NCBI RefSeq assembly: GCF_002854065.1
Contig: NZ_CP024147.1
DNA from: Escherichia coli
GTDB taxonomy: Bacteria > Pseudomonadota > Gammaproteobacteria > Enterobacterales > Enterobacteriaceae
Length of the DNA: 64,000 nucleotides
Reading direction: 5' to 3' (one strand)
The notes under the pieces are model-generated. The model searched no databases. It had not been told where the DNA came from and saw nothing but the letters and a program-made list of their open reading frames with translations. The stretch's first letter is position 1. Every line of letters begins with the position of its first letter. The position numbers and the translations under genes are program-made. This document shows, in pieces, positions 16,736 to 25,194 of this stretch.

Positions 16736-19081
16736 TTATTTCAGATTCTTTCTAATTATTTTCCCCGAGCAATTACGTGGCAGATCTTTTCTGATCTCCA
16801 GATAAGAGGGCACTTTAAATTTCGCCATATTTTGTTCGCAGAAGCGAAAAAATTCCTCTTCGCTCAATGTTTCACCTTCATTCAGCACCACAAATGCTTT
16901 GATGGCTTCATCGCGAATCGAATCTTTAATACCCACAACCACGATGTCCTGAATTTTCGGATGGGTGGCGATGATATTTTCCAGCTCCACGCAGGAGACA
17001 TTCTCGCCACCGCGGGTGATGCTGCCAACTTACTGATTTAGTGTATGATGGTGTTTTTGAGGTGCTCCAGTGGCTTCTGTTTCTATCAGCTGTCCCTCCT
17101 GTTCAGCTACTGACGGGGTGGTGCGTAACGGCAAAAGCACTGCCGGACATCAGCGCTATCTCTGCTCTCACTGCCGTAAAACATGGCAACTGCAGTTCAC
17201 TTACACCGCTTCTCAACCCGGTACGCACCAGAAAATCATTGATATGGCCATGAATGGCGTTGGATGCCGGGCAACCGCCCGCATTATGGGCGTTGGCCTC
17301 AACACGATTTTCCGCCATTTAAAAAACTCAGGCCGCAGTCGGTAACCTCGCGCATACAGCCGGGCAGTGACGTCATCGTCTGCGCGGAAATGGACGAACA
17401 GTGGGGATACGTCGGGGCTAAATCGCGCCAGCGCTGGCTGTTTTACGCGTATGACAGGCTCCGGAAGACGGTTGTTGCGCACGTATTCGGTGAACGCACT
17501 ATGGCGACGCTGGGGCGTCTTATGAGCCTGCTGTCACCCTTTGACGTGGTGATATGGATGACGGATGGCTGGCCGCTGTATGAATCCCGCCTGAAGGGAA
17601 AGCTGCACGTAATCAGCAAGCGATATACGCAGCGAATTGAGCGGCATAACCTGAATCTGAGGCAGCACCTGGCACGGCTGGGACGGAAGTCGCTGTCGTT
17701 CTCAAAATCGGTGGAGCTGCATGACAAAGTCATCGGGCATTATCTGAACATAAAACACTATCAATAAGTTGGAGTCATTACCGCCACCGCGTTTGATCAT
17801 ATTGCAGCGGCGATCGACGACATAAAAAAAGCCTTCTTCGTCGCGGTATCCGGTATCGCCGGTATGCAGCCAGCCATCAGCTTCCAGCACTTTTGCAGTG
17901 GCTTTCGGGTTGAGAAAATACTCTTTGAAGATGGTTTTCCCTGGTACGCCTTTAATACAGATTTCACCGATCTCACCTGCCGGGAGCGGGCGATTGTGAT
18001 CGTCGCGGATCTCCGCTTCGTAGCAAAACCCCGCCCGACCAATCGACGGCCAGCGTCGTTTATCGCCAGGGCGATCGCCGATAATGCCCACAATGGTTTC
18101 CGTCATCCCATAAGACGTCAGCAAGCGAACGCCGAAGCGTTCACAAAACGCATCTTTTTCCTGCTCCGACAAGTTGAGATAAAACATCACTTCCCGCAGG
18201 CGGTGTTGCCGATCGTTCGCTGAAGGCGGCTGCACCATCAACGTACGAATCATCATCGGAATACATTCGGTAACGGTGGCGCGGTACTTCTGCACCTGTC
18301 CCCAGAAGGCGCGGGCGCTGTATTTCTCGACCAGCACAAAGGTGGCCCCGGCAGAAAACGCCGCCATCGCCGCAGTACACTGGCAATCGATATGAAACGC
18401 AGGCATTACCGTCAGGTAGACGTCATCGTCACGCAGTGCACACTGCCAGGCGGAGTAATATCCAGCGAAGCGCAGGTTGTAATGGGTAATCACCACACCT
18501 TTCGGTCGGGAGGTGGTGCCGGAGGTGAAGAGAATTTCCGCCGTATCGTCAGTCGATAGCGGCGGTGCATAGCACAAGGTGGCAGGTTGTTGATTTTTCA
18601 GTTGAGTAAACGAACTCACGCCATCATCAGCGGGAAGTGCCACATCTGTCAGGCAAATGTGCCGCAACTGAGTGGCATCTTCCTGCTGAATCTGTTGATA
18701 CATAGGATAAAATTGCGCACTGGTCACCAGCAGGCAAGCCTGGCTATTTTGCAAGATCCACGCGCTTTCCTCGCGCAACAGGCGGGCGTTAATCGGCACC
18801 ATAATCGCGCCAATTTTTGCCAGCCCGAACCAGCAAAAGATAAATTCCGGGCAGTTGTCGAGATGTAGTGCAACCTTGTCGCCTTTGCGAATCCCCAGCG
18901 TATAAAACAGGTTTGCCGTGCGGTTAATCTCCTGATTTAACTCAAGATAACTATACCGGTTAACGACTCCGCCGCTGGATTCACAAATCAGCGCCGTTTT
19001 ATGACCGTAAACGTCCGCCAGATCGTCCCACATTTGACGTAGATGTTGTCCGCCAATGATATCCATTGCACCTCTATCCAT
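16736..19081 (-). pseudogene. caiC: caiC (crotonobetaine/carnitine-CoA ligase) interrupted by IS1
   Basis: C-terminal 84-aa fragment (16736-16990) and N-terminal 459-aa ORF (17702-19081, reading into IS1) are split by an IS1 at 17015-17782. Removing IS1 plus one 9-bp duplication restores a ~522-codon adenylate-forming enzyme. Confidence 0.9.
17015..17782 (+). mobile_element. IS1 insertion sequence, 768 bp, copy 1, inside caiC
   Basis: Ends GGTGATGCTGCCAACTTACTGAT... and ...AATAAGTTGGAGTCATTACC; insA 17070-17345 and insB frame 17264-17767 with the A-run frameshift site between them; flanked by 9-bp direct repeat GCCACCGCG (17006-17014 and 17783-17791). Confidence 0.95.
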
Positions 19082-21658: not shown

Positions 21659-23953
<2,295 letters not shown>

Positions 23954-24202
23954 TTAATTCCACTGTGAAAACGAATATTTATTTTGCGTTCCCGTTTGTT
24001 TTATTTTTGTTAACATTTAATATAATTATTATTAACCTCGTGGACGCGTTAATGGCTAACTCATAATGGGTATTCAATAAGCTGCATTCTGTGATTGTTA
24101 TCACATTTTTGTTTCGGGTGAATAGAGGGCGCTTTTCTCGTTAATTTTGATTATTAATCAGTTTGTTATGTTATGTTGTGAGTGAAAAAATAGCATCTGA
24201 CT

Positions 24203-24332
24203 TTCAATATTGGTGATCCATAAAACAATATTGAAAATTTCTTTTTGCTACGCCATGTTTTCAATATTGGTGAGGAACTTAACAATATTGAAAGTTGGAT
24301 TTATCTGCGTGTGACATTTTCAATATTGGTGA
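24203..24332. promoter_or_regulatory. Repeated palindromic TTCAATATTG motifs in the divergent caiT/fixA control region
   Basis: TTTCAATATTGGTGA at 24203, 24258 and 24318, interleaved with AACAATATTGAAA at ~24224 and ~24281; core CAATATTG is a perfect palindrome; TGTGA adjacent to the third copy. Confidence 0.5.
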
Positions 24333-24423
24333 TTAAAGTTTTATTTCCAAATTAAAGGGCGTGATATCTGTAATTAACACCACCGATATGAACGACGTTT
24401 CCTTCATGATTTCTGGAGATGCA

Positions 24424-25194
24424 ATGAAGATTATTACTTGCTATAAGTGCGTGCCTGATGAACAGGATATTGCGGTCAATAATGCTGATGGTTCATTAGA
24501 CTTCAGCAAAGCCGATGCCAAAATAAGCCAATACGATCTCAACGCTATTGAAGCGGCTTGCCAGCTAAAGCAACAGGCAGCAGAGGCGCAGGTGACAGCC
24601 TTAAGTGTGGGCGGTAAAGCCCTGACCAACGCCAAAGGGCGTAAAGATGTGCTATCGCGCGGCCCGGATGAACTGATTGTGGTGATTGATGACCAGTTCG
24701 AGCAGGCACTGCCGCAACAAACGGCGAGCGCACTGGCTGCAGCCGCCCAGAAAGCAGGCTTTGATCTGATCCTCTGTGGCGATGGTTCTTCCGACCTTTA
24801 TGCCCAGCAGGTTGGTCTGCTGGTGGGCGAAATCCTCAATATTCCGGCAGTTAACGGCGTCAGCAAAATTATCTCCCTGACGGCAGATACCCTCACCGTT
24901 GAGCGCGAACTGGAAGATGAAACCGAAACCTTAAGCATTCCGCTGCCTGCGGTTGTTGCTGTTTCCACTGATATCAACTCCCCACAAATTCCTTCGATGA
25001 AAGCCATTCTCGGCGCGGCGAAAAAGCCAGTCCAGGTATGGTCGGCGGCGGATATCGGTTTTAACGCAGAGGCAGCCTGGTCAGAACAACAGGTTGCCGC
25101 GCCGAAACAGCGCGAGCGTCAGCGCATCGTGATTGAAGGCGACGGCGAAGAACAGATCGCCGCATTTGCTGAAAATCTTCGCAAAGTCATTTAA
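24424..25194 (+). CDS. fixA: Electron transfer flavoprotein beta-subunit homologue
   Basis: Start placed at [14 protein letters not shown] (256 aa); the ORF-track start at 24361 is an extension. Confidence 0.9.

Follow-up and report, generated by a model that had tools for sequence, protein, structure and literature searches.

A conserved putative CaiF half-site within the predicted fix promoter accompanies the CaiF and CRP operator modules of the Escherichia coli cai-fix control region

Introduction

The operator published for the activator CaiF has the form 5'-TTTCAATATTG-N13-CAATATTGAAA-3', and two such sites, F1 and F2, have been described in the cai-fix region (PMC12083890; the operator also in PMC3680233). 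The portion of PMC12083890 that cites Buchet 1999 reports physical binding of CaiF to F1 and F2. As for CRP, separate molecules of this regulator serve the cai and the fix promoters (PMC3105977), and RegulonDB lists for fixAp two CRP sites that are placed similarly to those of acsP2, with the proximal site at -69.5 (PMC3531196). A second precedent is provided by GrlA, whose homology to CaiF is also stated in PMC9979310. In the part of PMC4730234 that cites Islam 2011, GrlA is proposed to activate the LEE1 P1 promoter in a MerR-like manner, from a non-dyad target in an 18-bp spacer. Here we describe the array of CaiF-type motifs between caiT and fixA in a 64-kb window of E. coli DNA (the whole stretch that was analysed, to which all coordinates refer) and compare it with the corresponding regions of other Enterobacterales.

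Results

The array lies between the divergent genes caiT, whose start codon ends at 23950 on the minus strand, and fixA, whose ATG is at 24424, and it had been correctly assigned to their shared control region in a first-pass annotation of this DNA. The region was found in 5389 of the 5426 complete E. coli genomes. The gene caiF is intact at 14765-15160 on the plus strand (tblastn, 100% identity to K-12 CaiF over 131 aa), so that the array has the context of the published operator, with divergent caiT and fixA on its two sides and caiF in the same genome. The genes caiE, caiD, caiB, caiA and fixABCX are likewise intact. The annotation had also considered caiT and caiC to be inactivated, and each was indeed found to be cut by a 768-bp IS1 (at 17015-17782 in caiC and at 22935-23702 in caiT). 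The two IS1 copies have the same orientation, and each is bordered by a 9-bp target duplication (GCCACCGCG and GGTTCGTTA). The caiT::IS1 junction was not found as one contiguous match in any of the complete E. coli genomes searched, and the window may accordingly derive from a Shigella-like lineage. Compared with K-12, the intergenic region has 11 differences, none of which falls within any of the five half-sites described below; the proposed comparison with intact-operon strains was uninformative, the five sites being identical to those of K-12.

CaiF matches the Pfam family PF07180 (CaiF_GrlA) with E=1.8e-6, above the curated cut-off, and is 28% identical to GrlA over the HTH region by blastp (E=5e-8). 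Y11, N43, Y47 and R75, for which DNA contacts of CaiF have been reported (PMC12083890), are all kept from E. coli to Hafnia.

The core CAATATTG occurs at 24205, 24226, 24262, 24283 and 24321, which places five copies within 24205-24328. Over the whole window it was matched seven times against 1.31 expected, a number reached in none of 100 shuffles; the remaining two copies (8139 and 34244) lack the TTT/AAA flanks and were set aside as chance matches. The longer 11-mer TTTCAATATTG has exactly five matches, at 24202, 24259 and 24318 on the plus strand and at 24226-24236 and 24283-24293 on the minus strand. A repeat search returned TTTCAATATTGGTGA(T/G) as a direct-repeat family of three copies, spaced by 57 and 59 bp, and AACAATATTGAAA was present twice (24224-24236 and 24281-24293). 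The three-copy motif at about 55-60 bp and the second motif lying twice between its copies, both of which had been annotated before, were thereby recovered. The inverted pairing of the copies had not been recorded: four of the five cores pair as two perfect 11-13-11 inverted repeats, and one copy is left unpaired. Tandem Repeats Finder reported nothing in the array region; beyond the motifs the units diverge too far for the array to be a simple tandem repeat. The F1 and F2 units have 75% identity over 51 nt, about 29 nt of which are motif, and are about 40% alike outside the motifs, and the three left arms have 15-16 nt in common. A half-site with one mismatch, TTTCGATATTG, was also seen inside the caiF coding sequence (14863-14873), where it is probably a chance match.

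The first inverted repeat (24202-24236, plus strand) is composed of TTTCAATATTG at 24202-24212, a 13-bp spacer and CAATATTGAAA at 24226-24236, and the second (24259-24293, plus strand) of the same two arms at 24259-24269 and 24283-24293, again with a 13-bp spacer; both repeats are perfect. Since both stretches match the published operator letter for letter, they are by sequence F1 and F2, and four of the five copies are already known. Each spacer contains a CRP-like sequence, GGTGA-N6-AAACA in F1 (centre 24219.5) and GGTGA-N6-TAACA in F2 (centre 24276.5), and GGTGA, which comes after each left arm, agrees in sequence with the left half of the reported fix CRP sites. Mismatches to TGTGA-N6-TCACA number two in the F2 spacer, three in the F1 spacer and four at the copy proximal to fixA, with none in the cai-proximal site; across genera GGTGA is invariant, and the right halves of the CRP-like sites are variable. 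The earlier suggestion of CaiF and/or CRP as the regulators thus gained support from the published CaiF operator and from the CRP sites at cai and fix. A dimeric regulator had been deduced from the regular spacing of the copies. This deduction was imprecise: a dimer would bind the 35-bp inverted repeat, with its cores 21 bp apart, and the spacing of 57/59 bp is that at which entire CaiF+CRP modules recur, about 5.5 helical turns, which would put neighbouring modules on roughly opposite faces of the helix.

In the cai promoter, a perfect CRP site, TGTGA-N6-TCACA, was located by sequence match at 24090-24105 on the minus strand. The 1998 abstract of Buchet et al. is said to place CRP1 at -41.5 of cai and CRP2 and CRP3 at -69.5 and -126.5 of fix, and the cai and fix transcription starts are reportedly 289 bp apart. 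With the perfect CRP site at -41.5, the cai start would be 24056, and counting 289 intervening bases from there gives a fix start at 24346. The sequence agrees exactly with these figures. Counted from the inferred cai start, CATTAT, the -10 hexamer of cai (24068-24063), occupies exactly -12 to -7, and the spacer centres come to -69.5 and -126.5 only if the fix start is 24346. The position 24346 is thus inferred from CRP positions, those attributed to the 1998 abstract having been cross-checked with PMC3531196. Within the core promoter of cai, ATTCAATAAGC (24072-24082) was considered as a CaiF half-site and rejected; it matches at 7 of 11 positions, and across genera only TGAATAcC beside the -10 is kept. 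In the Hafnia group (six loci and others), TTGAT-N4-ATCAC, which has an FNR-like look, replaces the E. coli cai CRP site, and this suggests that in the cai promoter of that group the global regulator was swapped at the same class II position.

The fifth copy (24318-24333, plus strand) consists of an exact match to the CaiF left half-site, TTTCAATATTG at 24318-24328, followed by GTGAT, and it is not either of the two published CaiF sites. The prospect raised in the annotation, that the repeats simply coincide with mapped sites, therefore held for four of the five copies and not for this one. It has a left arm only, without the inverted-repeat architecture of F1 and F2: the sequence 13 nt downstream reads TATTTCCAAAT, with 4 of 11 matches, and a right arm with two or fewer mismatches was not found at this copy in any species scanned. 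A consensus promoter scan predicted the hexamers GTGACA (24311-24316) and TAAAGT (24334-24339) with a 17-bp spacer, and the half-site plus GTGAT exactly fill this spacer of the fix promoter as predicted from the scan and the inferred start. The two hexamers agree with a fix start at 24346, relative to which the fifth copy lies at about -28 to -18. The predicted fix -10 TAAAGT and the T-rich tract, GTTTTATTT (24334-24347, plus strand), include the inferred start and were delimited by the promoter scan and by conservation. By-eye comparison of the proximal block with the sigma-54 and IHF consensus sequences gave no match to either. The possibility that FixA starts further upstream, at the GTG at 24361, was rejected; this codon shares the fixA frame in E. 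coli (277-aa ORF), and the frame is lost in Proteus.

For the comparison across Enterobacterales, a CaiT scan with one genome per species yielded 80 loci, from which the caiT-fixA intergenic regions were extracted; FixA and CaiF were mapped, and half-sites were placed relative to the fixA ATG. Conservation was measured in a stack of 54 sequences from 20 genus-level groups, anchored on the fixA-proximal copy and weighted by genus, in which column i=1 corresponds to window position 24319, the first T of TTCAATATTG. The fifth copy proved to be the most widely conserved copy across enterobacteria. The 14-mer TTCAATATTGGTGA has 0-1 mismatch in almost all of the 54 sequences (20 genus-level groups), and within Enterobacterales 20 genus-level groups keep the block TTCAATATTGGTGAY-NNNGKT-WTTATTT in register. 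Columns i=1-14, which hold TTCAATATTGGTGA, reach about 2 bits, a value inflated by their use as the anchor. Among un-anchored columns, those at i=18-29 (A.GT.TTATTT) have 1.1-2.0 bits in 10 of 12 columns, and those at i=42-56 (c.TG.TA..T.TATT) have 1.1-1.7 bits in ten columns. The latter belong to a second conserved block, CGTGATATCTGTAAT (24360-24374, plus strand), which lies 42 nt downstream of where the half-site starts. With the pattern xTGnTAyyTnTAT it is found in register in every one of the 20 genera, the Hafnia group among them, and it might represent either an extended -10 or some element of the 5' untranslated region. The linker from F2 to the promoter and the -35 region are variable (0-1 bit). 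An invariant spacer beside a drifting -35 region is the reverse of an ordinary promoter, in which constraint falls on the hexamers and the spacer can vary freely, and argues for more than RNA polymerase contacts. The placement in a promoter spacer is weakened by the hexamers themselves, GTGACA and TAAAGT being kept only in the Escherichia/Citrobacter/Salmonella/Phytobacter clade.

Full repeat units vary from 0 to 3 per lineage, with a period of 55-61 bp that is most often 59. Two full units are present in Escherichia, Citrobacter, Salmonella and Phytobacter, with left arms at about -222, -165 and -106 from the fixA ATG; one is present in Yokenella, Atlantibacter, Pluralibacter, Trabulsiella and two further genera (left arms about -165 and -106); and Proteus has three, with left arms at -283, -224, -165 and -106, that is, three exact 59-bp steps, and seven copies of CAATATTG. 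F1 is kept at about -222/-198 in the four genera with two units, and F2, at -165/-141, in every member of the Enterobacteriaceae and Morganellaceae that was examined. In these two families the last copy stands about 105 bp from the fixA ATG, with Providencia heimbachae as an outlier at -138, and 102-119 bp separate the class II CRP/FNR-like site of cai from the first left arm with one, two or three units, the outlier here being Intestinirhabdus at 92 bp. Within the species, E. coli ZF8-1 shows an exact 57-bp loss of one CaiF/CRP module (equivalent to 24202-24258) between TTTCAATATTGGTGA repeats, and the same deletion junction is present in 12 of the 5426 E. coli genomes, ZF8-1 included, with O121 or O121:H19 making up most of the 12. 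Recombination between direct repeats demonstrably adds and removes units.

Lineages with no full unit comprise Hafnia, Edwardsiella, Leminorella, Limnobaculum and Serratia H1w, in which there is a single block 263-348 bp upstream of fixA, and Budvicia, in which the same block is doubled, 27 bp apart. The Hafnia-group block reads TTCAATATTGGTGATCTAGGTATTATTTTGG, and the inverted repeat is absent from these taxa. In Hafnia, Edwardsiella, Leminorella and Serratia H1w, where caiT-fixA is present, the proximal block is the only CaiF-like element, and Limnobaculum is likewise without a full repeat. CaiF was found within the fetched locus for four Hafnia-group genera, and not for Serratia H1w or Budvicia. 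Fourteen Shewanella/Ferrimonas loci with divergent caiT-fixA and without a CaiF homologue had 0-1 CAATATTG in 571-1873 bp and no block. In Entomohabitans teleogrylli, caiF and a single full inverted repeat (-226/-202) are present and the proximal half-site has been lost, which counts against an activating role of the latter.

Several local arrangements were also recorded. Entomohabitans teleogrylli keeps GGTGAG-TTTTTATTT and GTGATATTTTTAT. In Budvicia aquatica the block is found at -338 and -311 from fixA, in tandem with a 27-bp offset, as TTTCAATATTGGTGATGAAGGTATTGTT and then TTCAATATTGGTGATAGAGGTATTATTTT. A reversed half-site, CACAATATTGAAAATTATATTG, is present only in Leminorella and Limnobaculum (three loci), about -35 from the fixA ATG and just upstream of the ribosome-binding site. 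In Salmonella enterica subsp. arizonae and diarizonae (two loci), F1, F2 and the proximal half-site are almost perfect; in the same two loci neither caiE nor caiF turned up in the 8 kb to the left or to the right of caiT.

Discussion

It is probable, in our judgement, that the array is the CaiF and cAMP-CRP operator of the divergent cai and fix operons and that the fifth copy is an activating CaiF half-site in the spacer of the fix promoter. In the published part of this scheme, CaiF, probably as a dimer, binds each inverted repeat and together with cAMP-CRP switches on cai and fix, the F1 and F2 modules each being a pair of inverted 11-bp CaiF half-sites clamped round a CRP-like site. The fifth copy would then be a third, truncated module, made of a CaiF half-site and GGTGA, the right part of which may have been replaced by the fix core promoter. 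A CaiF subunit on the lone half-site would help RNA polymerase directly, as proposed for GrlA in the LEE1 P1 spacer, and F1 and F2 would serve as upstream enhancer-type modules, 0-3 of which would have been added per lineage via gain and loss of a unit of about 59 bp. We infer the occupancy by CaiF and the activating role of the lone half-site from its conservation pattern, its sequence identity to the CaiF half-site and its co-occurrence with caiF. It is also possible, and we offer this only tentatively, that the fifth copy, not F1/F2, is the ancestral core target of CaiF, a single half-site in the fix core promoter from which CaiF would contact RNA polymerase in the way proposed for GrlA, and that F1 and F2 are later enhancers of variable number. 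From the 1998 work of Buchet et al. it is said that a 50-bp region overlapping the fix start is needed for cai transcription 290 bp away, and the lone half-site could lie behind this requirement.

The system described by Buchet (1998, 1999) is the nearest to the present one, with the same locus, the operator present twice, GGTGA-N6-WAACA in each spacer and an adjacent regulator gene; unlike the operators of that system, the fifth copy is a single half-site, located in the predicted core promoter and not upstream. The acsP2 promoter resembles fix in its tandem CRP sites, which are near -69.5 and -122.5 compared with candidate centres at -69.5 and -126.5. However, each CRP-like site of fix lies between two half-sites for another activator, one specific to the operon, and fix has a third GGTGA, in the core promoter. 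For the comparison with GrlA, the LEE1 P1 sequence TTGACA-TTTAATGATAATGTATTT-TACACA was confirmed 160 bp upstream of ler in O157:H7. In both LEE1 P1 and fix a non-dyad candidate target lies within the spacer of a sigma-70 promoter, and both spacers are AT-rich and begin with TTT. They differ in that the LEE1 spacer has 18 bp, whereas 17 bp are predicted for fix, and the LEE1 spacer is only vaguely like the CaiF half-site; the recognition helices also differ. Spacer length counts against a MerR- or GrlA-like mechanism, in which the activator compensates for an overlong spacer (19 bp in MerR-type promoters and 18 bp in LEE1 P1; PMC4730234); the 17 bp predicted for E. coli fix are optimal. The comparison suggests that members of the CaiF/GrlA family may act in common from inside the promoter.

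The fifth copy could instead belong to a class II CRP promoter, in which GGTGA-N6-TTTTA (centre 24335.5) would stand at -41.5 of a start near 24377, TGATATCT (24362-24369) would be an extended -10, and the half-site, at about -54, would touch CRP and the alpha subunit of the polymerase. We regard this arrangement as unlikely, even though GGTGA-N6-TWTTA and TGnTA both keep register throughout the 20 genera, the CRP-like centre is the canonical 29.5 bp away from the T of the TA in TGnTA, and GTGACA and TAAAGT are kept in one clade only. A start near 24377 conflicts with the reported 289-bp separation of the two starts, which in combination with the cai CRP site at -41.5 gives 24346. The RegulonDB CRP position of -69.5 puts the start at 24346 as well (PMC3531196). 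Furthermore, the right half TTTTA agrees with TCACA at 2 of 5 positions, and the proposed -10 is without the usual T at -7.

A location between -35 and -10 is also the classic position of a repressor, and the proximal half-site might therefore act as a brake, at which inducer-free CaiF or an AT-binding silencer (e.g. H-NS) would block the polymerase until relieved by the inducer or by the upstream complex. CaiF binds DNA in vitro without carnitine, which counts for such a brake. H-NS is in addition reported to repress carnitine metabolism (PMC2131755). We nevertheless consider a brake very improbable: CaiF is without a reported repressor role at cai/fix, the Hafnia group has only this block and CaiF there must still activate, and the exact identity to the CaiF half-site speaks against a generic AT-binding protein. 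The explanation to which we give the least credence is that the copy is a functionless relic of a duplication of the module of about 58 bp, its right half decayed and the remainder preserved by overlap with the fix core promoter. The 15-16 nt common to the three left arms and the recombination of units in and out would agree with such an origin, but the copy stays the same in four families despite drift of the adjacent -35 region, it is the sole copy in taxa without any full module that could have been the source of a duplication, and outside the motifs the F1 and F2 units are only about 40% alike.

For an activating CaiF half-site in the fix promoter spacer, the literature to 2025 other than the primary papers Buchet 1998 and 1999 gave no direct counterpart: it mentions only two CaiF sites, no third CaiF site was found in it, and nothing useful was found on genomic SELEX data for CaiF or on promoter names. 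This two-site literature suggests that in vitro CaiF on its own gives no visible binding to the lone half-site. The array itself corresponds to CaiF and CRP sites mapped in 1998-99, and for four of the five copies there is little new. What may be novel is the conserved promoter half-site and the variation in unit number, a modest extension of a characterised system with putative binding. The promoter-embedded half-site is missing from current descriptions of the system and from CaiF-based carnitine biosensor work. Finally, the E. coli lineages in which one module is deleted, including O121:H19, provide natural tests of the contribution of each module.
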